Below are positions 1 to 14,469 of a stretch of 18,609 nucleotides of DNA, piece by piece. This DNA is from a virus (taxonomy: Duplodnaviria; Heunggongvirae; Uroviricota; Caudoviricetes): the IMG/VR virus record IMGVR_UViG_2534681878_000012, positions 1 through 18,609 of that record, one strand, 5' to 3'. Position numbers and translations under genes: made by a program. The notes beneath the pieces were generated by a model. That model saw nothing but the letters and a program-made list of their open reading frames with translations. It did no database searches and had not been told where the DNA came from. Numbering within the stretch: the first letter of the stretch is position 1; every line of letters starts with the position of its first letter.

Positions 1-1055
1 TCTTCTGTTTCCTGCTTAGCAGACAGTTCGCGGTTAACTTCTTCCAGGATATCTTTTTCCGGTGTATGTCGTGCAGCAGTGAGAGTTTCCTTGCTGGGGT
101 TCTCGTGATCAGTCTCCGTTAAGTAGGCGTTGATATACCCCTGAAGGCGTCCCGGGTAGTGATAAAACTCAGGGTGAGCGCTCCGGATAAGTGCAAAAAT
201 AGCGGCGCGGGAATAGTCCAGAATACCCGGGGTTGCGCGAAGTGCTGCGGACCATTCTTTGAACGGACTTTCTCTTTTCAGGACGATTTCTTTTGCGCGA
301 CGATAAACGCTGCCCGGAATTTCATAAATATTAAAATCCATCGGAAGTGTGGCTGCTGCAATCTCCACATCCAGCGTATCGAAGGTGTGTACTAAATTCG
401 GATTGCGATCGGTTTTGTTCCCGCCACCGGCATTTGCACCGGAAGCCGTACGGGTGATACGCGAAACACGATTTCCTTTCATCCACTCTTTTGTCAGCAG
501 ACCCCGATCAGTGTAGTCAGCGTCCAGGTATGCCTCGAAAAAAGCAGTTATCAGTCCCAGGTCTGAATTACCGGGATTAGGGAAAACTTTGTCAGTGTCG
601 CGTACCAGTTTGTGAAGGTCGCGAATCTCCAGCGGGTCGAGCAGCTTTGTTTTGTGAGAAATGGCCAGGGCAGTAACAGCCGGCAGTTCTTCCGCCCGTG
701 CTATATGTAATGCCTGAAGTTCTTCCCGTGCAACGTGCGTTACTGGTTTTTCGCTGCCGTGTTGCGCAAGCCAGCGAATGGGCAGCTCCTGACCAGAAAC
801 CGGCAGGAGCATATTCTCCTCAATCTCCGTCATGTCTTCGCCGTTGACGTTGGTATTGTCAGTACTGGCTGGTTTCTCCTGCACGGAGGGAGAGGGCGCG
901 ATAAATACCATTGTAATGCCATCTTCCCCGCCTTTTTCGTATCGGTTGCAGAATTCGGTATCAAACACGCCTTCAGGTGGAAGGTCATTCACAACGGGTA
1001 AATGGACGCGAACGGGTTTTTTAAAGTCGTCTTCATCATAATCGTTGTCATCCAT
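1..1055 (-). CDS. recE: Exonuclease VIII (RecE)-like protein, N-terminal portion; gene runs off the window start (3' end not in window)
   Basis: Manual minus-strand translation gives an open frame across 1..1118 reading ...VVNDLPPEG...[38 protein letters not shown]...[12 protein letters not shown]...TETDHENP..., closely matching remembered Rac RecE. It is absent from the ORF track because no stop lies in the window. First in-frame ATG is at 1055; an MST... start with a GAGG RBS sits at 1195 in another frame. Confidence 0.6.
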
Positions 1056-1306
1056 TGCGGTAATGCAGCGGGAGATGGCAACAGATAATTTTTTGCTGTA
1101 GTCCAGTAAAAACCACCTTTAATTCCCAGACGTTTTCTGACTTTGTCATTTTTTGCTTCGCAATATAGCGCAAATTCTTCTTTATCAGTGCTCATTGATA
1201 AACCTCATTACAGATTTAAGGGTGAACAAATCCCTGCCATTGCTGGCATTTTTAATCCGTTGGTATGGTGTTAATATGGCTGGAGGGTTATCCAGCCGGT
1301 GTTTCG

Positions 1307-1477
1307 TTATTCAGGTACAGCGATTACTTTTTTTACCGGGAGGCATTCACCAGAAATTTTTTGCTCGTCTCTTGCCTGGAGGCAGGATTCTTTACTGGCA
1401 TAAATTCCGGTAATCACATTCTGTGATTCACCCGTTATAAGAAAAACCGTCATCATCAGTGCAAATGCTGAAGTCAT
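1307..1477 (-). CDS. ydfD: Small protein with hydrophobic N-terminus (56 aa), YdfD-like position downstream of dicB
   Basis: ORF below the track cutoff, found by manual translation: MTSAFALMMTVFLITGESQNVITGIYASKESCLQARDEQKISGECLPVKKVIAVPE. Its ATG overlaps the dicB stop as ATGA, indicating translational coupling. Confidence 0.45.
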   Translation of the reverse strand: MTSAFALMMTVFLITGESQNVITGIYASKESCLQARDEQKISGECLPVKKVIAVPE

Positions 1478-1662
1478 TGACGTTCTCCGAAAATACCAAG
1501 TTCAAGAAGAGCAATTCGGGAAAGTATGGAATTATCATTGAGCAGATAAGGCTCATATTTCCTCATGTTAATGGCATCTTCAGTAAACTCCCGGTTACTG
1601 AGCAGAACACCAATATCAAAACAACCTTCAGACGTATTAACGTTTGGTAATAACGTTTCCAT
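1474..1662 (-). CDS. dicB: DicB-like cell division inhibitor (62 aa)
   Basis: Internal start of track ORF 1474..1767: METLLPNVNTSEGCFDIGVLLSNREFTEDAINMRK... resembles remembered K-12 DicB. GAGG RBS 8 nt upstream; lies directly downstream of DicF as in Qin. Confidence 0.75.
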   Translation of the reverse strand: METLLPNVNTSEGCFDIGVLLSNREFTEDAINMRKYEPYLLNDNSILSRIALLELGIFGERQ

Positions 1663-1831
1663 TATCGCGTCCTCAACAATGAATTTTGTGATGCAGTGCC
1701 TGGTGCCTCCAGGTGACGTTAACCAGTTAACAATTAACGCCGGATACAGAGAATCCACCCATAACACTGTTTTTGGTTTTAACTGTTCCGCGTGCGCTTA
1801 GCCGCATTCACCGCATCACAAAATTCACTTT

Positions 1832-1889
1832 AAAAAGGGCGGCAGAGCAGCCACGGAGTAAAACTGATACCGCCAAACGTCACCAGAAA
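1832..1889 (-). ncRNA. dicF: DicF small regulatory RNA (ftsZ-targeting antisense sRNA of the dicB operon)
   Basis: Minus-strand sequence tttctggtgacgtttggcggtatcagttttactccgtggctgctctgccgcccttttt matches remembered DicF apart from one base, ends in a GC stem plus U-run, and sits between the ydfA-side genes and dicB. Ends are approximate. Confidence 0.8.
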
Positions 1890-2434
1890 ATTGATAACAG
1901 AGGGCGTTGCAGCGGGGTTGTCACTTAAGCGTATGGTCAACCTGACAACCCGGTGTCCTCAATGGGGAAGGAATAACCCCGCCATACTTACCGCCGCGCC
2001 ATTTCGCGGAGTGCCACAACCGGAAGCGCACGTTCGAAGAAATCTAACGACAAGCCTTCTAAGGGAAGAGCTTCGCCGTACGCTTTCGCGTTATGCACTG
2101 ACTTTTCAGGGAAATATCCTTTCAGTAAACTGTCAGTACCGGATTCTTATCCGTGTCCGGCGCACGACCACACGTGACAGCGTGTTGGTCTCCATTTTTA
2201 ACCCAGAACCTCAATGGAGGATAAAATGCCAAACAAAAAAGAAATCCGCTTATTGAAAAACAGATTGAATGCCTGGTAAATCAACTCAGGCAATCAGGGT
2301 TATTAAAAACTCATTCAGAGTTGAGGCTCACAGAATCAGCATTCGACGATAAATTAAATAATGTCCTTTATAATGGCATTATTGATTTTAATCGTTCTGT
2401 TGGTCGCCGCGGCCCTGCTGGTGTTTCCTTATAA

Positions 2435-3073
2435 TTACCAGTCAATCCAGAGTGGACCGTGTTCAGCGTAAATATAACTGTACACATCCAGATTATATTT
2501 GTGGTCTGTTAAGAACAGGCCGCAAATACATGCCGAAGCTTCCAGTGCAGCGGCTCTGTTACTGAATAACCATGTAGCAACATTCCAGCGTTTTTCTGCA
2601 TCCCAGTCTTTCTCAAGGCCTGATACCATGAAGAAACCGTTAGTGTTGCCATCAAATAATTCTGTTTCCAAATTTTTAAGCAATGCCTGATGGACTCTTG
2701 CCAGGTATTCCGCCGGAATTTCGCCACGAATTCTGATGAGATTGTCATAAACAAACATGTTCCCCGCATATGGCGATTTTTCTTTCTTGTTTTTTAAACC
2801 AGCATCATGAGCAAACTGATCAATTTCTTCTTCCGTTGGTTTCGTATTGATGTTTTGCGCTGTCGTTTCTGCAATTTTATTTGCCACACTCTCTGAGTCG
2901 TGTTTATTTATAGACGCACAGAAATACAATCCGGTAAACGCATCGCGCACATTACGAGCCATATTATCAGTGTCTTTTTTCGTTACCGATTCCAATTCAA
3001 GTTCGTTCAGACGATGACGAAGTGTGTGTGCTGCAATCTCCTGGATTGAAGGAGGTAAATCTTTAAATTCCAT
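2435..3073 (-). CDS. Hypothetical soluble protein (212 aa) in the leftward early operon; function unknown
   Basis: Track ORF 2435..3085; preferred start is the second ATG (MEFKDLPPSIQ...) with a GAGG RBS 6 nt upstream. No TM segments or recognisable motifs. Confidence 0.6.
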   Translation of the reverse strand: MEFKDLPPSIQEIAAHTLRHRLNELELESVTKKDTDNMARNVRDAFTGLYFCASINKHDSESVANKIAETTAQNINTKPTEEEIDQFAHDAGLKNKKEKSPYAGNMFVYDNLIRIRGEIPAEYLARVHQALLKNLETELFDGNTNGFFMVSGLEKDWDAEKRWNVATWLFSNRAAALEASACICGLFLTDHKYNLDVYSYIYAEHGPLWIDW

Positions 3074-3084
3074 CGTCAACCTCA

Positions 3085-3237
3085 TCAGTCAGTGTTTCTG
3101 GCTAACCAGCGACGCGCGCCAGCTTCAGTTTTAAACGTTTTGCTTCTGGTATACGTCATCGCGGTAAACGTGCCGTCCTGATTGGGAAACACGCCACATA
3201 CCAGAGATTCGTTGTTGCCAAGATCGATAGTATCCAT
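3085..3237 (-). CDS. ydfA: YdfA-like small protein (50 aa), first gene of the leftward operon
   Basis: Internal start of track ORF 3085..3393: MDTIDLGNNESLVCGVFPNQDGTFTAMTYTRSKTFKTEAGARRWLARNTD. GAGG RBS 5 nt upstream; its stop overlaps the first ATG of the next gene. Confidence 0.55.
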   Translation of the reverse strand: MDTIDLGNNESLVCGVFPNQDGTFTAMTYTRSKTFKTEAGARRWLARNTD

Positions 3238-3313
3238 GCTGACCTCATTTCCCCTTAACGCCGGGGTAGCGGAACTGTTTGCTGAGAACACCGTGCGGTG
3301 TCTTGATGGAGGT

Positions 3314-3364
3314 AATTTAGTTTTCTCATTATTTTTCGTCAAGGCTTTTTGATGAGAAAACTCA
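3314..3364 (-). promoter_or_regulatory. Leftward early promoter (pL-like, dicB-operon promoter) with two repressor operator palindromes
   Basis: Minus strand reads TTGACG (3337-3342), 17-nt spacer, TAAATT (3314-3319). Perfect palindrome TGAGAAAACTCA at 3353-3364 and an 11/12 copy at 3317-3328 overlapping the spacer and -10. Confidence 0.55.
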
Positions 3365-3429
3365 AGTATTGGCGCAAGATAAAGCCAATGCATTGAAATG
3401 TAAGGCTTTAAAATTTTGTGAAGGGATGA

Positions 3430-3837
3430 TTATTGATGCTTGTTGCGTTTGCGAGCCTCTAATAGCTCGGTGAACAGGCGATTAAAATTCTCAACGCGGG
3501 CGCGGAGTTCGCTGAGTTGTGCTTGTTGCTCTGATTTAGGAAGTGCGCGATACAAACGCAACATCTCTAACTCATCTTCCGATAAGTCTAAGGCACTATC
3601 GAGTGAAACAGGGGGAGTTGGTGTTTTGTCCTCGTCGCCAAACAGTATCCAGGTTGGTGAACATTGCAATACCTCGGCGAGGCGATGCAAATTTTGCCCG
3701 CGCGGGGCTGTATGGTCACTTTCCCATAATGAAATTGATGAGCCAGATACGCCAGCAGCTTTGCTTAAACCGTTTTGACTTAAGCCTACCTGCTTACGTC
3801 TTTCTCTAATGCGTTGACCTAAAGTTTTCTCGTTCAT
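3430..3837 (-). CDS. dicA: DicA-like HTH (XRE family) prophage repressor, 135 aa, no peptidase domain
   Basis: Internal start MNEKTLGQRIRERRKQVGLSQ... of track ORF 3430..3888; C-terminal ...LQCSPTWILFGDEDK.PTPPV... matches remembered K-12 DicA. Divergent from the cro-like gene. Confidence 0.8.
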   Translation of the reverse strand: MNEKTLGQRIRERRKQVGLSQNGLSKAAGVSGSSISLWESDHTAPRGQNLHRLAEVLQCSPTWILFGDEDKTPTPPVSLDSALDLSEDELEMLRLYRALPKSEQQAQLSELRARVENFNRLFTELLEARKRNKHQ

Positions 3838-3849
3838 ATTTAGATATCT

Positions 3850-3892
3850 TAATAACCCTTGACTTGAGATTCCTTGAGTGATTAGCATTGAG
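3850..3892 (+). promoter_or_regulatory. Rightward early promoter (pR-like) with overlapping operator palindrome
   Basis: TTGACT at 3850-3855, about 18 nt, TAGCAT at 3874-3879; perfect 14-bp palindrome TTGAGAAAACTCAA at 3879-3892 over the -10 and start region, same core as the two leftward sites. Confidence 0.55.
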
Positions 3893-3914
3893 AAAACTCA
3901 ATATTGGAGGTGCG

Positions 3915-4142
3915 ATGTTTAAATCAGACGTAATTAATTTTTACGGTACGAAAGCCAAAGTAGCGAAAGCTGCTGGCGTTGACCCATCTGCTGTTTCTCA
4001 ATGGCAAGAGCTGGTTCCTGAAGGTCGCGCGATGCGTCTACAGGAGGCATCTGGCGGGGGGCTTCAGTATGATCCCAAAGTTTATGACGAATATCGTAAG
4101 ACGAAGCGGGCGGGGCGGTTGAACAATGAAAATCACTCCTGA
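3915..4142 (+). CDS. dicC: Cro-like DNA-binding protein (DicC/YdaS-like), 75 aa
   Basis: Internal start MFKSDVINFYGTKAKVAKAAG... of track ORF 3888..4142 with GGAGG 8 nt upstream; C-terminal ...VPEGRAMRLQEASGGGLQYDPKVYDEYRKTKRAGRLNNENHS matches remembered DicC. Confidence 0.75.
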   Translation: MFKSDVINFYGTKAKVAKAAGVDPSAVSQWQELVPEGRAMRLQEASGGGLQYDPKVYDEYRKTKRAGRLNNENHS

Positions 4143-4677
4143 ACAGGCTCGTGAGGCTCTGGATGCCTGGATATGTCGACCAGGAATGACACAGGAGCAG
4201 GCGACGATATTAATCACTGAAGCATTCTGGGCTTTGAAAGAGCGCCCGAACATCGATGTTCAGCGTGTCACAGATGAAGGTGGCGCGGTTGATCAGCGAG
4301 CGCTTGGCGTTAATCGAGTGAAGATATTCGAACGCTGGAAGGCTATCGATACTAGGGATAAGCGTGAAAAGTTCACGGCGCTAGTGCCTGCAATTATGGA
4401 GGCTATCCGGATTAATGATTTCAGGTTGTATCGTGAAATTAGTGACGGAAAAAGCATCACGTACATGATCGCCGGGTTAAACAAAGAATATGGCGATGTG
4501 GTGGAGTCCGGGCTGCTTTTTGCGGATCCATCTGTTGTGGAACGTGAGACTGGCGAGCTTATAGAAAAAGCTATTGCTTTCAAGCATGCGTATCGTCAGC
4601 AGTATCAATATTACTTTGCAGATAAACAAATATCTGCCAGGGGTTCGTATGAGTATCGATGCACTACGATGGGCTAA
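4126..4677 (+). CDS. Hypothetical early protein (183 aa) in the cII/YdaT position after cro
   Basis: Track ORF; its start overlaps the 3' end of dicC in another frame. No confident family assignment. Confidence 0.5.
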   Translation: MKITPEQAREALDAWICRPGMTQEQATILITEAFWALKERPNIDVQRVTDEGGAVDQRALGVNRVKIFERWKAIDTRDKREKFTALVPAIMEAIRINDFRLYREISDGKSITYMIAGLNKEYGDVVESGLLFADPSVVERETGELIEKAIAFKHAYRQQYQYYFADKQISARGSYEYRCTTMG

Positions 4678-5230
4678 AAAGGTGAAAACCGGCAGTTCAT
4701 CCAGTAAGTCTGTATTGACCTGGCTTGCTGATATGTGCGGTGCCGATTTGTGTGCATACCCGTCTGTATCTGCACTGGCAGAAGTAACGGAACTGAACAA
4801 AAAGACTGTGCAGGACAGCTTACGACACCTGATGGAGATTGGGTTAATTGTTGATACCGGTGAGAGAAAAGGCAGAACAAAGCAAATTGTGGTGTACCGA
4901 CTTATCGGTGTAGAAGAAAGTGTTGCCGAGCCTGAATACACCCAAAAACGGGTGTCTTTAAAGGTGGGTAAAATTGGTGCTGTTAATAAAAACAGTACCG
5001 AAAACGGTTATGTTTCAGCACAAAAGAGCCCCAAAAACGGAACTCTTTGTTGCATGGAAAATAACCAAAGACACCCAAATTTTCCATCAAAGACACCCAA
5101 AAACGGATCACGGAACCCAAAGGAACCCAAAGATCTAAACCCCACACATAACGCACGCGAGAGTGCTCCGATCAGTGAGCAGGAAGTTTTGTCGTTACAG
5201 GCAGCCCCCATGTATTCCTGGATGGCCTGA
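4649..5230 (+). CDS. Replication initiator (lambda O-like) with N-terminal winged-helix domain and low-complexity linker
   Basis: Internal start MSIDALRWAKKVKTG... with AGGGG RBS 6 nt upstream (track ORF starts at 4574). ...VQDSLRHLMEIGLIVD... is typical of phage initiator N-terminal domains; the linker carries PKNG repeats coinciding with DNA iterons. Confidence 0.6.
   Translation: MSIDALRWAKKVKTGSSSSKSVLTWLADMCGADLCAYPSVSALAEVTELNKKTVQDSLRHLMEIGLIVDTGERKGRTKQIVVYRLIGVEESVAEPEYTQKRVSLKVGKIGAVNKNSTENGYVSAQKSPKNGTLCCMENNQRHPNFPSKTPKNGSRNPKEPKDLNPTHNARESAPISEQEVLSLQAAPMYSWMA
4997..5132. repeat. Iteron-like direct repeats (ACCCAAA(AACGG)), candidate origin of replication inside the O-like gene
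   Basis: Five CCCAAA cores (5030, 5074, 5095, 5115, 5125) plus two degenerate copies (4997, 5064), several extended to ACCCAAAAACGG, at about 10-44 bp spacing. Confidence 0.5.
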
Positions 5231-5253
5231 GCGAACCCATCGGAAAATTTCCG

Positions 5254-5688
5254 ATGACCGATAGCTGGTATCCGTCACGGGATTTTCGACGACGGGCTGC
5301 GTTGTGGGGGATGGCTTTGCCGGAGACAGAATTTACACCTGCTGAACTTACCGCATTCCGGGACTACTGGGCAGCGGAGGGGAAAGTGTTTACGCAGATT
5401 CAGTGGGAGCAGAAATTCGCCCGTCACGTAAATCACGTCAGGGCGCAGGTTAAACCAGTCAGCAAGGGGGTAAACCATGCAGCAGCACCAGGTGGCACCG
5501 CATCACGGGCAGTTCAGGAAATTCGGGCAGCACGTGAGCAGTGGGAACGTGAAAACGGATTTATCAGCGACGGAAACGGCCTGGAAGCTGTGGGAACTCA
5601 TGGGGGAGGTTTATTCGAACCGCTGGACCCAGAAGAACGGGGCCGCACCTTCGAAGCTCTGGATTGCACAGATTGGCGCGATGACTGA
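5254..5688 (+). CDS. DnaT-like replication-associated protein (144 aa as drawn)
   Basis: Track ORF; N-terminal half protein-like, C-terminal tail Gly-rich and overlapping the P-like gene out of frame; stop overlaps an in-frame P-like ATG as ATGACTGA. Confidence 0.45.
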   Translation: MTDSWYPSRDFRRRAALWGMALPETEFTPAELTAFRDYWAAEGKVFTQIQWEQKFARHVNHVRAQVKPVSKGVNHAAAPGGTASRAVQEIRAAREQWERENGFISDGNGLEAVGTHGGGLFEPLDPEERGRTFEALDCTDWRDD

Positions 5689-6142
5689 GCAGCAAATCCG
5701 GCAGGTCTGCCGCCAGTGCATGGACCGCTGCCGGGCGGGTGAAACATGGCCTCCGGACCTGGCTGAGTTTGTGGCGCTGATTTCGGAAAGCGGGGCCAAT
5801 CCATTTGGCCTGACGGTGGATGCTGTGATGGAGGAGTATCGCCGCTGGCGTAATGAGTCCTGGCGATATAACGGAAGCGACAAATATCCGTGGCCTCAGC
5901 CTGTGCTGTATCACATTTGCCTCGAGATGCGTTCAAAGGGGATTGAACGCCAGATGACCGAAGGGGAATTAAAACGGCTTGCAGAACGGCAGCTGACGAA
6001 ATGGGCAAAGCATGTTAGTAACGGCCTGAGCGTTCCGCCAGTACGGCGACAACTGGCGGCACCAAAACGCCCGTTGGGACCAACGCCAATTGAGTTGCTG
6101 AAACAGGAGTATGAACGCCGGAAAGCGGCTGGTTTTGTCTGA
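5477..6142 (+). CDS. Replication protein P-like (helicase loader homolog), 221 aa
   Basis: Track ORF with AGGGGG RBS about 6 nt upstream. ...ETWPPDLAEFVAL...YPWPQPVLYHICLEMR...TEGELKRLAERQL... resembles remembered lambda P. Start uncertain: 5477, 5600 or 5681. Confidence 0.55.
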   Translation: MQQHQVAPHHGQFRKFGQHVSSGNVKTDLSATETAWKLWELMGEVYSNRWTQKNGAAPSKLWIAQIGAMTEQQIRQVCRQCMDRCRAGETWPPDLAEFVALISESGANPFGLTVDAVMEEYRRWRNESWRYNGSDKYPWPQPVLYHICLEMRSKGIERQMTEGELKRLAERQLTKWAKHVSNGLSVPPVRRQLAAPKRPLGPTPIELLKQEYERRKAAGFV

Positions 6143-6176
6143 TTTGAGAAGTAATTTTTATCCGGAGGAAATTTTA

Positions 6177-6947
6177 ATGGGAACCGTATTGCATGCACTG
6201 AAAGCGATGGGTAAAGCCAATTCTGTTGAACTGGCGGCGCGGCTTGATATCAGCCGTGAAGAAGTTCTCAACGAACTGTGGGAACTCAAAAAAAATGGCG
6301 TTGTTGATAAAACGGGTCACACCTGGTTTCTGGCTGTCGAAGGCGAATCCGGGGTAACCGAAGGGCAGGCACTACAACCTGAAGCGCCGGATGTGGTAAC
6401 CGAAGAGGTCGCTCCAAAAGTTAGCGCTGACATGATGATTGAGTTTATCGCTCAGGAGGGGGCTAAAACCTGTGAAGAAATAGCGGGTAAGTTCGGTGTC
6501 AGTACTCGCAAGGTTGCTTCCACGCTGGCGGTGGTAACCGCAACGGGGCGGCTGGCACGCGTTAATCAGAACGGTAGATTTCGTTACTGCATGCCGGGCG
6601 ATAATTTACCAGCAGAGCCGAAAGCCGCGCTGGTAACGGAAAATGATGGTAAGGCCTTTCCTCAGCCAGCAGGTGCTGCGTTACCAGTCCGGGAAGCCGC
6701 AACACAGGAAGAAATTAAAACAGAAACTGTGGCGGACATTGTGCAGCCGTTGCCATCGTTTACCGAAACGCAAGCAGATGAGCTGATTTTTCCGTCCCTT
6801 CGCAGGGCAAACCTGGCGCTGCGCAGGGCGAAAAGTGATGTTCAGAAGTGGGAGCGAGTCTGCGCCGCGCTGCGGGAGCTGAACAAGCACCGGGATATTG
6901 TTCGACAGATTACTGATTCTTCCCGCCGTGTTGTATCGGAAAAGTGA
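6177..6947 (+). CDS. Hypothetical protein with two predicted winged-helix-like segments (DUF1627-like, from memory)
   Basis: Internal start MGTVLHALKAMGK... of track ORF 6111..6947 with GGAGG RBS; HTH-like stretches at N-terminus and mid-protein. Confidence 0.55.
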   Translation: MGTVLHALKAMGKANSVELAARLDISREEVLNELWELKKNGVVDKTGHTWFLAVEGESGVTEGQALQPEAPDVVTEEVAPKVSADMMIEFIAQEGAKTCEEIAGKFGVSTRKVASTLAVVTATGRLARVNQNGRFRYCMPGDNLPAEPKAALVTENDGKAFPQPAGAALPVREAATQEEIKTETVADIVQPLPSFTETQADELIFPSLRRANLALRRAKSDVQKWERVCAALRELNKHRDIVRQITDSSRRVVSEK

Positions 6948-6962
6948 TTGCCGGAGGCGCTT

Positions 6963-7355
6963 ATGGCAAAAGTATTTACACCAGAAGAGCGGGAAGAAGT
7001 GAAGGCGCGCATTGTGGAATTCGTGCGCCTGAGCGGACGAGAAACTTTTCGACAACTGGCAGATAAAACGGGTGTCAGTAAGACCGCTATTCGTTGTTTA
7101 TCTGGTGCGCTTGCGGCCAGTGGTGATGTCTGGCTCTCTGGTTGCGGGGTATTTCTATCAGAGCAGGCGTATCGCGTATGGCGCAAGACACCGGAGAAGG
7201 CTGCTGACCCGACACTGATTCGAAAGTTACCTGACGGAGAAATACGTCGTTACAACAGACGGCAGAACATAATTTGTCGTGAGTGCCGCCAGAGCGAAGT
7301 TATGCAGCGTGTGCTGGCGTTCTATCGGGGTAATTTTCAGGAGGTGATGGAGTGA
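6963..7355 (+). CDS. Hypothetical protein (130 aa) with HTH-like segment
   Basis: Internal start MAKVFTPEER... with GGAGG 6 nt upstream (track ORF 6948..7355); stop overlaps the next gene's GTG as GTGA. Confidence 0.55.
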   Translation: MAKVFTPEEREEVKARIVEFVRLSGRETFRQLADKTGVSKTAIRCLSGALAASGDVWLSGCGVFLSEQAYRVWRKTPEKAADPTLIRKLPDGEIRRYNRRQNIICRECRQSEVMQRVLAFYRGNFQEVME

Positions 7356-7648
7356 GGGTGAGAGTTTATATTGCCGGTCCAATGACGGGATATGAAAATT
7401 TCAACCGTGAGGCGTTTCACAAGGCGGAAGAGGAACTGAAACGGGAAGGGCATACCGTCTTAACTCCGGCAGTACTTCCGGACGGGCTGACACAGCCGCA
7501 CTACATGGATATTTGCATGGCAATGATTCGTTGTGTGGATGCGATTTACATGCTGAATGGCTGGCAGCGGTCAGCGGGCGCTAAGGCAGAGCTGGCACTG
7601 GCGGAGAAACTGGGGCATGCGGTGATTTATCAGGAGGTGGCTCGATGA
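7352..7648 (+). CDS. DUF4406 / nucleoside 2-deoxyribosyltransferase-like small protein (98 aa)
   Basis: GTG start; N-terminal VYIAGPMTGYENFNREAFHKAEEEL... is the Rossmann-like signature of the NDT/DNPH1-like fold; stop overlaps the next ATG as ATGA. Confidence 0.6.
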   Translation: MRVRVYIAGPMTGYENFNREAFHKAEEELKREGHTVLTPAVLPDGLTQPHYMDICMAMIRCVDAIYMLNGWQRSAGAKAELALAEKLGHAVIYQEVAR

Positions 7649-8020
7649 GAGAGGTTAACTATGAGGCGCTTCGTGAGGCAGCACAAAACTATCAGTCGAC
7701 GCTGGCGTGGTATCAGGCTACCCCGGACAGCCCAAATGCTGAACGGGATTGTGATGCGGCTCTTGCTGCGTTTAAGCGTCATATCCGTCATCGGGAAGCG
7801 GATATTATCGCTGGTAGCTGGTTTGCTGGATGCGCGGGAAGTTCAATTACCGACTCGCTACGACCTTCGATATGGACACCCGATAAATGCAGATGAGCGA
7901 CATGTCATGATACCTAAAGAAAATGGCAGTTGGCTTTACCTGATTGACCTAGAACACGCATTACGCGTCGCTGGCATTCGCATCAAAGGAGAGGAGCATG
8001 GAAATAAAACCAGAGGATGA
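7645..8020 (+). pseudogene. Ead/Ea22-like gene, copy A, apparently frameshifted and shortened
   Basis: MREVNYEALREAAQ... N-terminus (frame of 7645) shares the Ea22-like motif with copy B; conserved C-terminus ...AGIRIKGEEHGNKTR is in the +1 frame (ends 8020). Frame switch lies near 7810-7830; total span about 125 codons versus 239 in copy B. Confidence 0.5.
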
Positions 8021-8354
8021 GTTAAGCAATATCGTTTTATTTCCGGTAAAAGAGGATGACCCTCGTAATCAGGTTAATTTTCTTTATGAGCCATCGGAAA
8101 GACCATATTGTCATCACGCCTCTGTTCGGGTTGACGAAAAAGAGCGCCAGGTCCGCTGTAAAATCTGCGGTGCGGTTGTGGAGCCGTTTGACTGGATGCT
8201 CTCTGTGGCGAAAAGAGAAACCAGACTGGCAGATGATGTAAGGCTATTGCGCCAGGAGGAACAGGAAAGGCGGAAAAATATAGAAAAGTTAATTCAGATT
8301 GAACGTAACGCGAAAGCGCGGATACGCAGGGCGACAAAATCCAGAACTGAATAA
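7998..8354 (+). CDS. Hypothetical protein with putative zinc ribbon (CHH...CxxC), cassette copy A, 118 aa
   Basis: Track ORF; start lies inside the Ea22-like 3' end; about 95% identical to 9696..10052. Confidence 0.65.
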   Translation: MEIKPEDELSNIVLFPVKEDDPRNQVNFLYEPSERPYCHHASVRVDEKERQVRCKICGAVVEPFDWMLSVAKRETRLADDVRLLRQEEQERRKNIEKLIQIERNAKARIRRATKSRTE

Positions 8355-8404
8355 ATAAATTTAGCGCTGTAAATAAAATCTAATCCTGAACTGGAGGTAT
8401 ATTT

Positions 8405-8617
8405 ATGTTAAATACACAGAAAGCCATTAATGCGGAAAAATATAACGAGTGGGCAAGAAAATTCTCTGAGCAGATTTTTAAAATTACTGGCGATGAGAAT
8501 GCGGCAAAAAATGAATTAGAACCGTGGACACCTGAAGGAAACGCACCAAATTATTGCTGGTGGGAGGTTGATCCGGTTGATGTTGCAAATGAAGCCATGA
8601 GTTACCACAACGATTAA
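8405..8617 (+). CDS. Hypothetical small protein (70 aa), cassette copy A
   Basis: Track ORF with GGAGG RBS; about 88% identical to 10101..10313. Confidence 0.65.
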   Translation: MLNTQKAINAEKYNEWARKFSEQIFKITGDENAAKNELEPWTPEGNAPNYCWWEVDPVDVANEAMSYHND

Positions 8618-8621
8618 TGTC

Positions 8622-8643
8622 AGGAGGCCGCCCGAAAGGGCGG
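8622..8643 (+). promoter_or_regulatory. SD plus GC hairpin with GAAA loop (AGGAGG, CCGCCC-GAAA-GGGCGG) upstream of the 8651 ATG
   Basis: AGGAGG 8622-8627, 6-bp GC stem 8628-8643, ATG at 8651; no U-run, so not a classical terminator. Identical element at 10318-10339. Confidence 0.5.
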
Positions 8644-8650
8644 TAGTTAA

Positions 8651-8833
8651 ATGCGAAAGTTTAAAATAATTATTGAAACGGGAATAGCCGGTGGAGATTT
8701 CGAGGATGAATTCGAAGTGGATGATGATGCGACGCCTGATGAAATACATGACGAAGCAAAAGATATTTTCTTTAACTACTGCAATTATTCATATCACGAA
8801 ATAAAAGACGAAGAGGAAGAACAAAATGGCTGA
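8651..8833 (+). CDS. Small highly acidic protein (60 aa)
   Basis: Track ORF rich in D/E (DFEDEFEVDDDATPDEIHDE...KDEEEEQNG); stop overlaps the next ATG. Confidence 0.55.
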   Translation: MRKFKIIIETGIAGGDFEDEFEVDDDATPDEIHDEAKDIFFNYCNYSYHEIKDEEEEQNG

Positions 8834-9002
8834 TTTTGGTTCAACTAAATACAGCGTCAGTTTTGAAGAATGGCATGAACTGTTAATGGAATATGCAGAG
8901 TTACGTGGTGGCAGTGCTGCTGATGCTGAAGCATGGCGTGATGATTATGAAGCAGGAAAAAATCCGGTCGAAGCATATTGTGATGAGTGGGGCGATGAAT
9001 GA
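8826..9002 (+). CDS. Small acidic protein (58 aa), not in ORF track
   Basis: Manual translation MADFGSTKYSVSFEEWHELLMEYAELRGGSAADAEAWRDDYEAGKNPVEAYCDEWGDE; start overlaps the previous stop and its stop overlaps the Ea22-like B start as ATGA. Confidence 0.5.
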   Translation: MADFGSTKYSVSFEEWHELLMEYAELRGGSAADAEAWRDDYEAGKNPVEAYCDEWGDE

Positions 9003-9718
9003 GCGAGATTGACTATCAGGCGCTGCGTGAAGCAGCAGAGAAAGCAACTAAAGGATGCTACATCGTAGGGCATACATCGGGCAATCAGCATGGGAATATA
9101 ACAGGAGTTTTTGTTTGTCAAAAATGGAAAGGAGAGCCCGGTGGCGTAATTGCAGAATGTCATGTTAACTGCCTGGTTGAAACAGATGCTCAGGCTTACG
9201 CAAACGCTGAATTTATTGCTGCCTTTAATCCAAATGTTGCGCTGGCACTACTGGATGAACGGGAAAGAAACCAGCAATACATCAAATCACGCGACCAGGA
9301 GAACGAGGAGATTGCGCTTACGGAAGGGAAGCTGCTAATCGAAAACGGCCGGCTTGTTGCCGATACGCTACGCCACTTAGCTGATAACGAAATCGACTCT
9401 GATTATTTTGCTATCACCTCAACGAATGAGAACGGTACTGAAATTGATCATGAGATGGCTATTACCGATTACGCACTGCAAGCTGCCGGAACTGTAGACG
9501 AATTGGTTGCGGCGTTGGAATCCGCAGAGAAGCGCATTGCAGAACTGGAAGCACGGGAAATATCGCTCCCAGAACGTAGCAGCATGCTTCATCGAACAGA
9601 TTTTCACGATGATTACCAAACGGTAATGGCATACAAAGTTTCTGAAGTCATCGCTGCAATCCGCGCCGCTGGCATTCGCATCAAAGGAGAGGAGCATGGA
9701 AATAAAACCAGAAGATGA
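8999..9718 (+). CDS. Ead/Ea22-like family protein, copy B (239 aa, intact)
   Basis: N-terminal MSEIDYQALREAAEKA... and C-terminal ...AGIRIKGEEHGNKTRR typical of the family; track ORF. Confidence 0.7.
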   Translation: MSEIDYQALREAAEKATKGCYIVGHTSGNQHGNITGVFVCQKWKGEPGGVIAECHVNCLVETDAQAYANAEFIAAFNPNVALALLDERERNQQYIKSRDQENEEIALTEGKLLIENGRLVADTLRHLADNEIDSDYFAITSTNENGTEIDHEMAITDYALQAAGTVDELVAALESAEKRIAELEAREISLPERSSMLHRTDFHDDYQTVMAYKVSEVIAAIRAAGIRIKGEEHGNKTRR

Positions 9719-10052
9719 GTTAAGCAATATCGTTTTATTTCCGGTAAAAGAGGATGACCCACGTAATCAGGTTAATTTTCTCTATGAGCCATCGGAAAGA
9801 CCATATTGCCATCACGCCTCTGTCCGGGTTGACGAAAAAGAGCGTCAGGTCCGCTGTAAAATCTGCGGTGCAGTTGTGGAGCCATTTGACTGGATGCTCT
9901 CTGTGGCGAAAAGAGAAACCAGACTGGCAGATGATGTAAGGATCTTGCGCCAGGAGGAACGGGAAAGGCGGAGAAATATAGAAAAGCTAATTCAGATTGA
10001 GCGTAACGTGAAAGCGCGGATACGCAGGGTGACAAAATCCAGAACTGAATAA
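9696..10052 (+). CDS. Hypothetical protein with putative zinc ribbon, cassette copy B, 118 aa
   Basis: Paralog of 7998..8354; same overlap with the Ea22-like 3' end. Confidence 0.65.
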   Translation: MEIKPEDELSNIVLFPVKEDDPRNQVNFLYEPSERPYCHHASVRVDEKERQVRCKICGAVVEPFDWMLSVAKRETRLADDVRILRQEERERRRNIEKLIQIERNVKARIRRVTKSRTE

Positions 10053-10100
10053 TTAAATTTAGCTCTGTTAAAAATTTAATCCTTAACCGGAGGTATATCA

Positions 10101-10313
10101 ATGTCAAACGCACAGAAAGTTATTAACGCTGAAAAATATAACGAGTGGGTGAAAAAGTTCTCAGAGCAGATTTTTAAAATTACTGGCGACGAGAATGCGG
10201 CAAAAAATGAATTAGAGCCGTGGACACCTGAAGGTGTCGACCCAAATTATTGCTGGTGGGATGTTGATCCAGTTGATGCTGCAAATGAAGCTATGAGTTA
10301 TCACAACGATTAA
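10101..10313 (+). CDS. Hypothetical small protein (70 aa), cassette copy B
   Basis: Paralog of 8405..8617 with GGAGG RBS. Confidence 0.65.
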   Translation: MSNAQKVINAEKYNEWVKKFSEQIFKITGDENAAKNELEPWTPEGVDPNYCWWDVDPVDAANEAMSYHND

Positions 10314-10317
10314 TGTC

Positions 10318-10339
10318 AGGAGGCCGCCCGAAAGGGCGG
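10318..10339 (+). promoter_or_regulatory. Second copy of the SD plus GAAA-loop hairpin, followed by a 4-codon mini-ORF
   Basis: Same sequence as 8622-8643; ATG at 10342 opens MKSD-stop (10342..10356). Confidence 0.45.
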
Positions 10340-10513
10340 TAATGAAAAGTGACTGAATTAACCAAAGAGAAATTAATCGAAGAAGCCAAATTAAAAATAG
10401 CGATTGCGAAATGCTACCCCAATTCAGGGATGGCACGGGTATAGGGCGAGTTATTCAAAATTGCACTGGCATAGCTGGAAGCAGATCCAGTTAAACGAGT
10501 TAACTCAGATCAG

Positions 10514-11227
10514 ATGCACCGAGTCTGCTTAGAAGCTAATCGCTATTTAGATAAATATGACGCGATGGCGAAAGAGGTAAATAAGTTGCTTGGACGCATC
10601 GCCCCGCCAGCGCCAGTATTTAACGGCGAATACGGTGACGCATATCAGGGCGCTCGTGAAGACCTGTCCATCTGGAAACGGCGAGCGCTTGAAGCTGATG
10701 AGCACGTTCGGCGACTGGAGCAAATCAATGACCACATGGTGAAAGAGGCGCAGGGAGAATCACGCATGGGCGAGCCTGTAATACGTGAGCCAGCACCGGT
10801 AGTGCCTGAAGAAGCAACTCCGGAAAACGTAGAAATGCTCTCTGGCTATGTTTCAACGTACAAATTAACCGATAGCGAGCGCGATATTGCTGCCGAAATA
10901 TGGAACGCCTGCCGCGCCGCCATGCTTCAGGCTGGAAACTTTCGGGAAAATAAGGGTTCGTCAACCAATAATTTTCGGGAAATCTCGGAAACGTCAACCA
11001 ACTATCCGGTAACTCCGGATGGTTGGATAAGCTGTAGTGAGCGAATGCCGGATGATGGTCAGCACGTAATTATTTTATGTGATGGCGCATTCGTTCTTTA
11101 TGCGCAATATCGAGACGGTGAGTTTTTTGATGTAGTCCGTAATGGTGATGAATTTTTCGAAACACAGAGCCGCAATGTAACCGACTGGATGCCGCTACCA
11201 GAACCGCCGCAGGAGGTGCGCCAATGA
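10514..11227 (+). CDS. DUF551-domain protein (Ead/Ea22-associated C-terminal domain), 237 aa as drawn
   Basis: C-terminal ...DGWISCSERMPDDGQHVIILCDGAFVLYAQYRDGEFFDV...WMPLPEPP resembles DUF551. No good RBS at 10514; the upstream same-frame sequence is interrupted by two TAG codons (10442, 10472). Confidence 0.55.
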   Translation: MHRVCLEANRYLDKYDAMAKEVNKLLGRIAPPAPVFNGEYGDAYQGAREDLSIWKRRALEADEHVRRLEQINDHMVKEAQGESRMGEPVIREPAPVVPEEATPENVEMLSGYVSTYKLTDSERDIAAEIWNACRAAMLQAGNFRENKGSSTNNFREISETSTNYPVTPDGWISCSERMPDDGQHVIILCDGAFVLYAQYRDGEFFDVVRNGDEFFETQSRNVTDWMPLPEPPQEVRQ

Positions 11228-11307
11228 TCTGGCCTGAAGCCTTTGCAATTACAGGCGTTGCTATAGCTATTGATTTTTTAGTATATGTTATTTGTCGGTG
11301 GGGGTAA
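11224..11307 (+). CDS. Very small hydrophobic peptide (27 aa), not in track
   Basis: MIWPEAFAITGVAIAIDFLVYVICRWG; ATG overlaps the preceding TGA. Confidence 0.35.
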   Translation: MIWPEAFAITGVAIAIDFLVYVICRWG

Positions 11308-11342
11308 AAACGTTCGCCGGGATTCACACCAAAGGAGGGAAT

Positions 11343-11447
11343 ATGTCGGATGATATTTCACTGGCAATGGAAGGTGCGCTGGCTGTTATTGCTGTTGTGG
11401 GCGTTTACTGCCTGGTTGTGTTTTTGATGGATCGACTAGGGAACTGA
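11343..11447 (+). CDS. Small hydrophobic peptide (34 aa), not in track
   Basis: MSDDISLAMEGALAVIAVVGVYCLVVFLMDRLGN with AAGGAGGG RBS 5 nt upstream. Confidence 0.45.
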   Translation: MSDDISLAMEGALAVIAVVGVYCLVVFLMDRLGN

Positions 11448-11635
11448 ATTCATTACGATATGGGAATTCCCATATCGGGTAAAAACGGTTTGCGGTAAAG
11501 CGAGAGTTAAGTAGAATTGCTGCGGGTGCTTGAGGCTATCTGCCTCGGGCATGAACACCAACGGCAGATAGAGAAAAGCCCCAGTTAACATTACGCGTCC
11601 GGCAAGACGCTTAACATTAATCTGAGGCCATATCT

Positions 11636-11848
11636 ATGCTCTACACACGTAGGTTAGCCTCTTACGTGCCGAAAGGCAAGGAGAAGCAGGCTATGAAGCA
11701 GCAAAAGGCGATGCTAATCGCCCTGATCGTCATCTGTTTAACCGTCATAGTGACGGCACTGGTAACGAGGAAAGACCTCTGCGAGGTACGAATCCGAACC
11801 GGCCAGACGGAGGTCGCTGTCTTCACAGCTTACGAACCTGAGGAGTAA
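11636..11848 (+). CDS. hokD: Hok/Gef-family type I toxin (51-aa core from 11693) with in-frame Mok-like N-terminal extension
   Basis: Core MKQQKAMLIALIVICLTVIVTALVTRKDLCEVRIRTGQTEVAVFTAYEPEE matches remembered HokD/RelF. Structured leader (9-bp inverted repeat 11536-11544 / 11563-11571) and 3' stem-loop as in hok mRNAs. Confidence 0.8.
   Translation: MLYTRRLASYVPKGKEKQAMKQQKAMLIALIVICLTVIVTALVTRKDLCEVRIRTGQTEVAVFTAYEPEE
11644..11679 (-). promoter_or_regulatory. Putative Sok-like antisense RNA promoter opposite the mok/hok start
   Basis: Minus strand reads TTGCCT (11674-11679), 17 nt, TAACCT (11651-11656); transcription would run leftward across the 11636 start. Inferred by analogy with hok/sok. 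Confidence 0.35.
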
Positions 11849-11855
11849 GAGACCT

Positions 11856-11877
11856 GGCGAGGGAGAAATCCCTCGCC
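11856..11877 (+). other. Perfect 9-bp stem-loop with GAAA loop just after the hok stop
   Basis: GGCGAGGGA-GAAA-TCCCTCGCC with no U-run; a weaker hairpin plus T-rich tract follows at about 11919-11945. Confidence 0.5.
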
Positions 11878-11950
11878 ACCTCTGATGTGTCAGGCATCCT
11901 CAACGCACCCGCACTTAACCTGCTTCGGCGGGTTTTGTTGTATTAGAATA

Positions 11951-12268
11951 TCAGGATATTACCTGGATCCCGTTTTTCTCGACAACTGAAAGAAGCCGAA
12001 GAGCTGCACCTCCCGGGCGTTTCACTCCTCGTTCCCAGTCTGATATCAGGTTTTTACTGACGTTGAGGTATCTGGCAAAAACAGGTTGAGACAGATGCTC
12101 TCGTTCTCGCAGTGCACGGATCCTTTCCGGAGACATTACCGGCGCAGGCTGAAGACAAGTTTCATCGAATTCGCGCATAGTTTGTTTTGTGATTGCACCG
12201 ATATCATGGAGTGACTCCATCATTTCATGTACAGATGCAAGTGCATCACTGCGGTAATTTTTACTCAT
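11951..12268 (-). CDS. HTH (XRE-like) antitoxin, HigA-2-like architecture (C-terminal HTH), 105 aa
   Basis: Track ORF; C-terminal ...SQPVFARYLNVSKNLISDWERGVKRP... is HTH-like; lies downstream of and overlaps the toxin by 8 nt. Confidence 0.65.
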   Translation of the reverse strand: MSKNYRSDALASVHEMMESLHDIGAITKQTMREFDETCLQPAPVMSPERIRALREREHLSQPVFARYLNVSKNLISDWERGVKRPGGAALRLLSVVEKNGIQVIS

Positions 12269-12632
12269 TGGGTACCTCCGTGAACTGGCCTTGTTGAATC
12301 AATTGTGCCAGCTGTTCATCAGTAAGATTGAGGACATGGGGAGCGGCTTTTCGAAAAGCATTTTCCTCTATAGCAGTGATATTCTCTCGTTCATTCTTTG
12401 CGTATGCGTAGATGAAAAAGGCTTTTTCTGCAACGCGGTAAAAAATTATTGTCCGGTAACCGCCTGATTTTCCGCCACCACTTCGGGCTAATCTTTGTTT
12501 AATGACACCACTACCCAAATTTGCGGATATGATCCCCTTATCGGCCTGCTCCACGATTTTGCGCAGCGATTTATCGGAAATCCGATGTTTTCGGGCGAAA
12601 CGTTCAAACCAGGCGTTTTTGAAAATTCGCAT
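12261..12632 (-). CDS. RelE/ParE-superfamily toxin, HigB-2-like, 123 aa
   Basis: Motif ...RLARSGGGKSGGYRTIIFYRVAEKAFFIYAYAKNERENI... resembles remembered Vibrio HigB-2; toxin-first order is typical of HigBA modules. Confidence 0.65.
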   Translation of the reverse strand: MRIFKNAWFERFARKHRISDKSLRKIVEQADKGIISANLGSGVIKQRLARSGGGKSGGYRTIIFYRVAEKAFFIYAYAKNERENITAIEENAFRKAAPHVLNLTDEQLAQLIQQGQFTEVPNE

Positions 12633-12652
12633 ACCTGCCTCTGCATTTTATA

Positions 12653-12667
12653 TAACACATAGTGTTA
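12653..12667. promoter_or_regulatory. Inverted repeat TAACAC-ATA-GTGTTA upstream of the toxin gene, candidate autoregulatory operator
   Basis: Perfect 6-bp arms with 3-bp spacer, 21 bp upstream of the toxin start codon. Confidence 0.5.
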
Positions 12668-12855
12668 CACCATGTGGACTATGGAGGCAATCTTTATTTG
12701 AGAATGCTTGCTGATTTATCGGTGTTCAAAAAACAGACGTAATTCAGATTGTATAAACGGCAGACAGAAAAAGTCATTGTTCTTGCGCATAAAATCCTCA
12801 GATTTACTGAGTGAAATGCGTCTCTTTTCATGGTTATAGTCCGAGAGAAGCGATA

Positions 12856-13083
12856 ATGCATTTCATTTCCTTTACGTCAGGAGGTGTTGTGAAAATCCCA
12901 GCCAGTTTGATCCCGGGGTTTTATGAGAGCACGCGCCCGGTTGTTGTTTACAGAAACAGTGATGGTTCTTTTCAATGTGGTTTTGTTATGCGAAGTAATG
13001 AGGTTGTTGTAAGCCTTTCTCTTCTTTCTGAGGTAAGAGAGTTGGCAGGATTACCTGTTGATGATATTCAGAAGCAGCTATAA
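12856..13083 (+). CDS. Hypothetical small protein (rem-like position upstream of ydfU)
   Basis: Track ORF 12811..13083; possible starts GTG 12811, ATG 12856, or GTG 12889 with GGAGG RBS. Confidence 0.45.
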   Translation: MHFISFTSGGVVKIPASLIPGFYESTRPVVVYRNSDGSFQCGFVMRSNEVVVSLSLLSEVRELAGLPVDDIQKQL

Positions 13084-13118
13084 AATCAGGCTGACTTGAA
13101 CCGTCGCTGAGAAACACC

Positions 13119-13406
13119 GTGCCACCGGAGATCCCGATGGCGCACGATAGCAGATTGCACAATTCTGCCGCCCTTGCCAGTAGGCAAGGGCGGTGTTCGC
13201 ACGTATTTAAAACCGACTGGTTCCAGCATCCCCTATGCACTGAAGAACAGGCCGAATGGCTGATCCAGTGTTACCGCAGGCGTGGTTACGAGTTTCAGAA
13301 AGATCTCAGCTTCGATCGTCGTCACTGGATAATCTCCGCCAGGCTCCCTTATTCCGAACGCCCACCGCGTCCGTCCCGCACATTCCAGCAGCGCATCTGG
13401 AGGTAA
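13119..13406 (+). CDS. Hypothetical protein (95 aa)
   Basis: Track ORF ending just before the ydfU-like start; no recognisable motifs. Confidence 0.3.
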   Translation: MPPEIPMAHDSRLHNSAALASRQGRCSHVFKTDWFQHPLCTEEQAEWLIQCYRRRGYEFQKDLSFDRRHWIISARLPYSERPPRPSRTFQQRIWR

Positions 13407-13407
13407 C

Positions 13408-14457: not shown

Positions 14458-14469
14458 AAGAGGTGACTG

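Follow-up and report, generated by a model that had tools for sequence, protein, structure and literature searches.

The window analysed here is an 18,609-nt stretch of Caudoviricetes DNA (IMG/VR record IMGVR_UViG_2534681878_000012, positions 1 to 18,609) and represents a lambdoid prophage of E. coli. At positions 4935-5132 it carries an array of repeated sites which we read, with a probability of roughly three in four, as the replication origin of this prophage. It would be an origin in the style of phage lambda, situated in that part of the initiator gene which encodes a disordered linker, yet with an initiator of a non-lambda family. From the comparison of related loci, the sites are evidently under selection at the DNA level and co-occur with one family of N-terminal domains. 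That the array is an initiation site, instead of a set of regulatory sites only, is suggested at about the same odds by analogy and context, while binding, bending, the place of opening and helicase loading are steps that we infer by analogy to lambda O/P and to iteron plasmids.

The array consists of four 24-bp palindromic sites, one half-site with a T-tract and two tandem 10-mers, directly followed by a mosaic joint:

4935-4958, plus strand: iteron 1, AATACACCCAAAAACGGGTGTCTT, the most palindromic copy with the arms ACACCC/GGGTGT, read as YTQKRVS in a frame unlike that of iterons 2 to 4.
4991-5014, plus strand: iteron 2, AACAGTACCGAAAACGGTTATGTT, read as NSTENGY.
5024-5047, plus strand: iteron 3, AAGAGCCCCAAAAACGGAACTCTT, read as KSPKNGT.
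5066-5087, plus strand: half-iteron with a T-tract, CAAAGACACCCAAATTTTCCAT, left arm only, 22 nt before iteron 4 and read as QRHPNFP in the third frame.
5090-5113, plus strand: iteron 4, the terminal copy, AAGACACCCAAAAACGGATCACGG, read as KTPKNGS.
5112-5132, plus strand: two tandem 10-mers, GGAACCCAAA (Tandem Repeats Finder: period 10, 2.1 copies, 100% match), read as RNPKEPK.
5133-5160, plus strand: a short A/T patch and a C-run, GATCTAAACCCCACACATAACGCACGC, forming a mosaic joint according to megablast and sequence comparison.

The core CCRAAAACGG occurs four times in the window (at 4942, 4998, 5031 and 5097, always on the plus strand), compared to 0.11 expected occurrences, and none of 200 shuffled sequences reached four. 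Chance is thus excluded as an explanation of the array. The shorter word ACCCAAA is weak if taken alone: it occurs seven times in the window, five of these within 4940-5131, and 10 of 200 shuffles reached seven. A repeat search of the window delivered one 19-nt family with four copies and one 14-nt family with three. Together with its flanks, each full site comprises 24 nt, with 10-nt arms in inverted symmetry about AAAA; counted by eye, 8, 8 and 7 of 10 arm positions match in iterons 1 to 3, and few in the terminal copy. Successive elements are spaced by 56, 33, 44, 22, 20 and 10 nt. The original prediction, made from this sequence, had counted five to seven copies, which agrees with the seven elements described here. 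It had placed them at 4997-5132, however, while the array starts 62 nt earlier and the copy that was omitted is the best palindrome. DnaA boxes (TTWTNCACA) were absent from the whole window, Rfam gave no match within the array, and a promoter and terminator scan of 3300-6400 produced matches that were not above those in shuffled sequences, none of them in the array.

What is conserved in these repeats becomes apparent from their relatives. A search with the N-terminal domain, limited to one genome per species, yielded 59 loci, which include Enterobacterales, Vibrio, Arsenophonus, Acinetobacter, Burkholderiales, Rhodocyclales and Sphingomonadales; 55 of them, amounting to 286 kb, were usable. 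In these 55 loci the 10-mer core has 98 copies on the coding strand, compared to two on the opposite strand. Of the 98 coding-strand copies, 94 fall inside the initiator open reading frame, at gene positions 263-651, where every frame is used (58, 22 and 14 copies; translated PKNG/TENG, QKR or PKT), and the AACAGT flank is kept in every frame class. The most frequent distances between neighbours are 22 nt (49 cases) and 17 nt (30 cases), and the distribution of distances modulo three (51/88/57) reveals no preference for multiples of three. As a separate observation, one locus from Arsenophonus nasoniae (L060, 1468-1536) has three further iteron cores clustered about 1 kb upstream of the initiator gene, perhaps as a partial second copy of the module.

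For a codon test, [KE]NG peptides of the linker were found at the protein level, that is without any selection on DNA, and their codons were then counted. AAA/AAG were used 34/0 times in these peptides and 503/337 times in the rest of the same genes; the corresponding figures are 25/0 and 451/288 for GAA/GAG and 58/1 and 176/152 for AAC/AAT. In genes with a GC content of 0.54 or more, the AAA/AAG ratio was 7/0 in the linker peptides compared to 47/130 in the remaining gene. Judged by codons and frames, the repeat is conserved as DNA and the peptide is not the constraint. The PKNG peptides are therefore a by-product, as had been proposed before: this view is well supported by the three reading frames, the spacing without modulo-three bias, the fixed synonymous positions and the disordered linker. 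Thereby the array constitutes a clean case of one DNA motif that is held constant while it is translated in three frames.

The surroundings of the array are those of a replication module. Positions 4649-6142 share 99.9% identity, with one gap, with NZ_CP022050.2 (E. coli O157 strain FDAARGOS_293) by megablast, and the same query was matched by 1256 of 5426 complete E. coli genomes. In the RefSeq annotation of NZ_CP022050.2, two genes span the equivalent of 4649-6142, one of 1041 nt and an overlapping one of 462 nt. What had been taken for a single O-like gene thus has to be divided, on the evidence of RefSeq, Pfam and PHROG, into an O-like and a P-like gene. The location of the repeats within the linker-coding part of the O-like gene and upstream of a lambda-P-like gene, in contrast, holds. 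The module comprises the following features:

4649-5688, plus strand: O-like replication initiator gene with a winged helix and a DnaT-like domain (megablast, PHROG, Pfam).
4649-4912, plus strand: region encoding the predicted N-terminal winged-helix domain, amino acids 1-88, the presumed iteron binder (AlphaFold2, Foldseek, HTH_36).
5205-5209, plus strand: C5 homopolymer, a 1-nt deletion that shifts the frame of the initiator (alignment; all relatives have C6 or more).
5236-5448, plus strand: region encoding the DnaT-like C-terminal domain for binding of single-stranded DNA (ssDNA), amino acids 197-267 of the intact allele (Pfam, PDB).
5681-6142, plus strand: lambda-P-like helicase loader gene, 153 amino acids, sharing its first 8 nt with the end of the initiator gene (Pfam, PHROG, RefSeq).

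The intact allele of the initiator comprises 1041 nt or 346 amino acids (WP_000020565.1, 'DnaT-like ssDNA-binding domain-containing protein'). The initiator matches PHROG 1032 'replication initiation protein' with an E-value of 5e-90, while its matches to 'O-like' PHROGs are weaker (1e-11 at best). The loader was recognized by Pfam Phage_lambda_P (PF06992; 1.7e-15, 57.6 bits at a cut-off of 26) as well as by PHROG 109 'P-like helicase loader' (2.7e-54), and RefSeq names it 'replication protein P'. It is this succession, a PHROG replication initiator followed by a Phage_lambda_P gene, that provides the replication context. Upstream of the O-like gene, the RefSeq annotation of the near-identical O157 record lists a cI-like repressor, a cro-like gene and a gene of the YdaT family.

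Within the initiator, amino acids 1-88 are modelled by AlphaFold2 as H-H-H-H-beta-beta, a winged helix, with a predicted local distance difference test score of 76-91, whereas the iteron-encoded segment, amino acids 90-172, is disordered in the model. Foldseek matches of the N-domain are generic winged helices and winged-helix regulators, including the N-terminal domain of RepA_N (4pql, E ~5e-3). HTH_36 (PF13730) scores 23.7 bits (3e-4) for the N-domain of the window, just below its cut-off of 25; of nine relatives that carry the same array, eight reach 33-55 bits. No Rep_3 match was obtained for the initiator, and a match to RP-C stayed below threshold. At the other end of the protein, the DnaT domain PF17948 covers amino acids 201-267 of the intact allele (60.4 bits, 1.4e-16, cut-off 25), and amino acids 197-267 match the DnaT structures 6AEP, 4OU6 and 9ZBT in the PDB with E-values of 5.5e-19 to 1.7e-17, 6AEP being the best (5.5e-19).

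The repeats follow the N-terminal and not the C-terminal half of this protein. The original prediction would have been refuted by absence of the repeats from homologous initiator genes, and it withstands this test: such genes carry the motif in the corresponding position in Alpha-, Beta- and Gammaproteobacteria. They do so with any C-domain, be it DnaT-like (E. coli, phiV10, Klebsiella), Phg_2220_C (Edwardsiella), DnaA_N (Altericroceibacterium) or unrecognised. In contrast, E. coli alleles that combine the same C-domain and P gene with a DUF1376 N-domain (including the Rac-type YdaU) lack the motif. These alleles are 86-92% identical to the window from 5129 onward, and the megablast matches H19-H24 begin only at query position 481, which is window position 5129. 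One such locus, L006, and the window both carry AAACCCCACACATAACGC, the mosaic joint just after the array. In place of the iterons, DUF1376 alleles contain TGTTCAAAC twice, 33 nt apart, plus one inverted copy. As the motif follows the N-domain in both directions, N-domain and repeats are exchanged as one unit, and we consider this strong comparative evidence that the sites are the DNA-level targets of the initiator's own winged-helix domain.

Two further observations concern the exchanged parts. In L006 (1895-1965) and in L005 (Rac-SA53 ydaU), ATGTTCAAACAAA is present twice, 33 nt apart, accompanied by the inverted GTGTTTGAACAT and then by an AT-rich stretch; the DUF1376-type repeat set may be the Rac-type origin sequence (oriJ). 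In the Altericroceibacterium initiator (L039), a DnaA N-terminal domain (PF11638, E 5e-10) occupies residues ~284-339 and replaces the DnaT-like domain, which suggests that the C-terminal domains are interchangeable adaptors for helicase recruitment.

Across Alpha-, Beta- and Gammaproteobacteria the elements share a common order: full iterons, half-sites, a terminal iteron, GAAYC repeats and often an A-rich patch with a C-run. The family consensus of the 24-nt site is AACAGTnCCRAAAACGGnACnGTT, and one locus (L051) has a perfect palindrome; variants show the arms GACACCC and AACAGTCCC, and in Acinetobacter the centre is AACAAC. Half-sites number one to three, lie 22 nt apart and carry the T-tract AACAGTCCCGTTTTTCC in the place of the A-tract, and in homologues of all three classes this element is found 22 nt before the terminal iteron. 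The latter ends in ...AAAACGGGACACGG or ...GGATCCGG across the family and is followed by two or three head-to-tail GAAYC repeats with a period of 10-13 nt. GAAYC is enriched 19-fold in the 50 nt past the terminal iteron in relatives. The tandem 10-mers of the window at 5112-5132 represent this family-wide GAAYC(N5-8) repeat and are a candidate unwinding or half-site element. The DnaT-like domain was considered as reader of the GAAYC repeats as well; this idea was down-weighted, since the repeats persist in relatives with other C-domains.

Variation within E. coli was followed in 69 prophage contigs, a viral set made up almost entirely of identical E. coli prophages. Hardly any variation is seen among them in iteron 1, in the 10-mers, in the half-site (unchanged in 66 of the 69 contigs) or in iteron 4 (unchanged in 68). 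In one variant of iteron 1 both arms are changed while symmetry is kept (ACCCCCAAAAACGGGGGG).

If the array is an origin, its function could be envisioned as follows. The winged-helix N-domain, probably as a dimer, would bind each 24-bp palindromic iteron through the 10-bp arms around the A-tract. Because the sites are phased by 22, 33 and 44 nt and each possesses a central A-tract, bound initiators could wrap or bend the DNA into a complex similar to the lambda 'O-some'. The duplex would then open beside the terminal iteron, at the tandem GAAYC 10-13-mers and the short A/T patch, and the DnaT-like C-domain together with the downstream lambda-P-like protein would recruit the host helicase DnaB. 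One might further speculate, although we regard this as rather doubtful, that the array is one case of an ancient origin grammar that spans the Proteobacteria and is tied to HTH_36, in which palindromes take dimers and GAAYC repeats take monomers or one strand of the open duplex. In such a grammar, the terminal iteron would end in GGGACACGG and precede two to three head-to-tail GAAYC 10-13-mers, a proposal that is equally tentative. The tandem GAAYC repeats do resemble one iteron arm (GGAAC...). If true, the grammar would amount to a switch between dimer and monomer, or between double-stranded and single-stranded DNA, akin to iteron plasmids and DnaA-trios yet written inside a coding sequence, and the C-domains (DnaT-like, DnaA_N, Phg_2220_C) would merely fit the complex to different helicase-loading routes.

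Several observations weigh against the array being an origin, or at least a working one in this prophage. The first concerns unwinding. The adjacent AT-rich region which the original prediction recommended to look for is weak in the window: the 40 nt past the terminal iteron contain ~55% AT by hand count, compared to 50% for the gene (about +0.05), no strong AT-rich unwinding element adjoins the array, and the 40-mer of lowest stability (4957-4996), which lies inside the array between iterons 1 and 2, reaches only the 97.7th percentile of the window. At family level such a region does become visible, and there it speaks for an origin. In a set of 43 loci, dominated by Acinetobacter, the 40 nt past the terminal iteron exceed the gene mean by +0.11 to +0.18 AT in 91-98% of cases, and AT content along the gene is highest over the 40 nt that start with the first GAAYC (offset 0-39).

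The second concerns the initiator. Its N-domain falls short of Phage_rep_O (PF04492; 14.8 bits, E 0.044, cut-off 28.7), for which lambda O itself scores 125.6, and a profile comparison with lambda O by hhalign aligned the winged-helix region with a probability of 4%, unusable as evidence of homology. Moreover, the C5 frameshift breaks the initiator in the window: the frame stops at 5228-5230, ahead of the DnaT-like domain, which is out of frame with the start codon, and the product would be a protein of 193 amino acids with winged helix and linker but without that domain. The C5 allele was found in none of the 5426 complete E. coli genomes (best match 98.9%, equal to one gap), and reflects either a private mutation or an error in sequencing the homopolymer. 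The claim of a retained initiator-origin pair therefore stands only in half: the array is intact, while the initiator is cut by the 1-nt deletion at 5205-5209 and its DnaT-like domain is lost. With the initiator truncated, an origin in the window would depend for its firing on an intact initiator of matching specificity supplied in trans, for example by a co-resident prophage.

The third concerns variation and independent support. Many E. coli prophages have substitutions in the cores of iterons 2 and 3, the core of iteron 2 frequently being CCGAAAATGG (49 of 69 contigs), so that not every copy need be functional. In the literature searched, no experimental binding or origin firing is reported for any family member. 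A circular E. coli record of 8,461 bp (NZ_CP148379.1, L149) has the array intact and no replication gene beyond the O-like and P-like genes, its further content being cI-like, cro, ydaT, hokD, rem and few cargo genes. This record looks like a natural replicon of the lambda-dv type and as such speaks indirectly for an origin, but it could be an assembly artefact.

Among the alternatives, the one that survives best, though we consider it unlikely, is that the initiator binds the sites for regulation or titration, as in autoregulation of O-P, as a transcriptional roadblock or as a determinant of copy number or incompatibility, while the true origin lies elsewhere. The palindromes indeed look like operator-type sites for dimers, and the weak unwinding element of the window fits such a role. 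So does an inverted core found in Edwardsiella (L003, L012 and L014; CCRAAAACGG on the minus strand), which lies ~18 nt upstream of the initiator start codon and may be an autoregulatory site. However, the module shows neither a further repeat cluster nor another AT-rich candidate, the array occupies exactly the position of ori-lambda, phasing by 22 nt together with A-tracts suits origin iterons, and the family-wide tandem 10-13-mers and A/T patch after the array are arranged as in real origins. Besides, regulatory and origin roles can coexist.

Less probable still is that the DNA is conserved for another purpose, such as a host-factor site, a recombination hotspot for module exchange, or a structure or frameshift signal in the mRNA. 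A mosaic joint directly follows the array, which would suit a hotspot, but the joint is located downstream and outside of it. Single strands of the array fold better than shuffled ones (z = -3.5), yet this signal is explained by the palindromes; moreover, sequence is kept beyond mere pairing, and Rfam had no match. For a host factor, it would be unexpected that the motif is almost confined to genes with an HTH_36-type N-domain (94 of 98) and is gone once this domain is replaced. Programmed frameshifting at CCCAAAAAC was considered and rejected, as it offers only five A's and not, as far as the sequence tells, a full slippery heptamer, and as the copies are already read in all frames. Finally, selection of a low-complexity PKNG linker for protein function, with DNA likeness as its consequence, is already contradicted by the data: phiV10 and Superficieibacter, in which all copies share one frame 18 or 24 nt apart, would fit this idea, but copies in three frames in both window and family (an assignment supported by the uninterrupted reading frames of the relatives), the unbiased spacing, synonymous codons fixed even against host bias, flanking nucleotides kept whatever the frame and the predicted disorder of the encoded segment all argue against it.

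Literature on these repeats was sought under oriJ/Rac, epsilon15/phiV10, HTH_36 and DnaT with iterons, and no description of them was found; a survey of the replication regions in Stx phages refers to HTH_36 proteins but makes no mention of iterons. Matches to the core in the literature were papillomavirus E2 sites (ACCGN4CGGT) and primers, a resemblance we regard as coincidental. An array functioning as origin would provide a concrete and testable candidate, together with its presumed cognate binding domain, for a replication module frequently found in prophages of E. coli O157/O145. Phages of many Proteobacteria possess the same type of module, among them Stx phages with non-lambda replication regions of the 'Eru' type; to our knowledge, the origins of these regions are not described. 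The 24-bp consensus could be used for annotating origins and for predicting replication specificity and cross-talk between co-resident prophages.

Other parts of the window are noteworthy as well. A tandem duplication of ~700 bp (7958-8656 and 9656-10352, period 1.7 kb; a 300-nt block with 96% and a 282-nt block with 88% identity) spans open reading frames of 118 and 70 amino acids beside ead/Ea22-like genes, one of which carries a frameshift according to the annotation of the near-identical O157 record. Rfam scores above gathering were obtained for the DicF antisense RNA by dicB (1837-1888, minus strand), the sok antitoxin RNA by hokD (11524-11698, plus strand), the small RNA (sRNA) STnc100 (16433-16623, plus strand) and the anti-GcvB sRNA AgvB (16624-16685, minus strand). 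According to the near-identical O157 annotation, a toxin of the RelE/ParE family and a helix-turn-helix antitoxin (~11951-12632, minus strand) adjoin hokD/sok, and further downstream lies a TerB-family pseudogene with an internal stop.

The closest known system is the origin of phage lambda, for which iteron bending and the role of the AT-rich region have been described (PMC7466680). Lambda has four annotated iterons in gene O (39034-39118, TCCCTCAAAACGAGGGA), palindromes around AAAAC which are translated in different frames as IPQNEG, SPKTRD, SLKLGD and PSKQGD, the last one being followed by GGGACAC and an A-rich tract. The original prediction saw the array as a mirror of these iterons, and position, symmetry, central A-tract, phasing and the downstream P-like gene are indeed alike. 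In ori-lambda, as in the O-P modules of the Stx phages 933W and P27, the iterons occupy the linker-coding middle of the initiator gene. The sites are palindromes around an A-tract (TCCCTCAAAACGAGGGA in lambda, ACACCCAAAAACGGGTGT in the window), differ in frame, lie about two helical turns apart and are followed by a GGGACAC-type sequence. An N-terminal winged helix and a loader of the lambda P family encoded directly downstream are shared as well, and in lambda O the N-domain and iterons are swapped as one specificity module (PMC7466680). In contrast, the N-domain encoded in the window belongs to a family that matches HTH_36 instead of Phage_rep_O and the C-domain is DnaT-like instead of that of lambda O; the array has extra T-tract half-sites and tandem GAAYC 10-13-mers and lacks a strong 40-bp AT-rich tract in the window.

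Iteron plasmids (RK2 TrfA, F RepE, pPS10 RepA) employ winged-helix initiators on phased repeats ~22 bp apart, and short tandem repeats in a nearby unwinding region can be contacted by Rep as ssDNA (PMC4081077, PMC4980987). Phased repeats of ~22 bp beside short tandem repeats are found in the window too. However, plasmid iterons are direct repeats outside the rep gene, while the sites of the window are palindromic and lie inside a coding sequence.

Origin repeats within the coding sequence of the initiator, between a DNA-binding N-domain and a host-specific C-domain, are also a feature of the RepA_N plasmids of Firmicutes and of SPP1 gene 38/oriL. These resemble the window in that the origin is inside the initiator gene, while sequence families and hosts differ and the 4pql match is that of a generic winged helix. 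With E. coli DnaT, the primosomal protein of replication restart, the initiator shares the C-terminal ssDNA-binding domain, to which amino acids 197-267 of the intact allele are homologous; DnaT lacks both a sequence-specific winged-helix domain and iterons. In the family of the window, the DnaT-like domain is fused to the presumed origin binder, and Phg_2220_C or DnaA_N take its place in relatives. Taken together, an origin inside an initiator gene is of a known kind, and since the lambda paradigm is conceptually repeated here, this is not a new kind of system. The more interesting part is the Proteobacteria-wide reach of the 24-bp consensus and of the grammar in which it is embedded.

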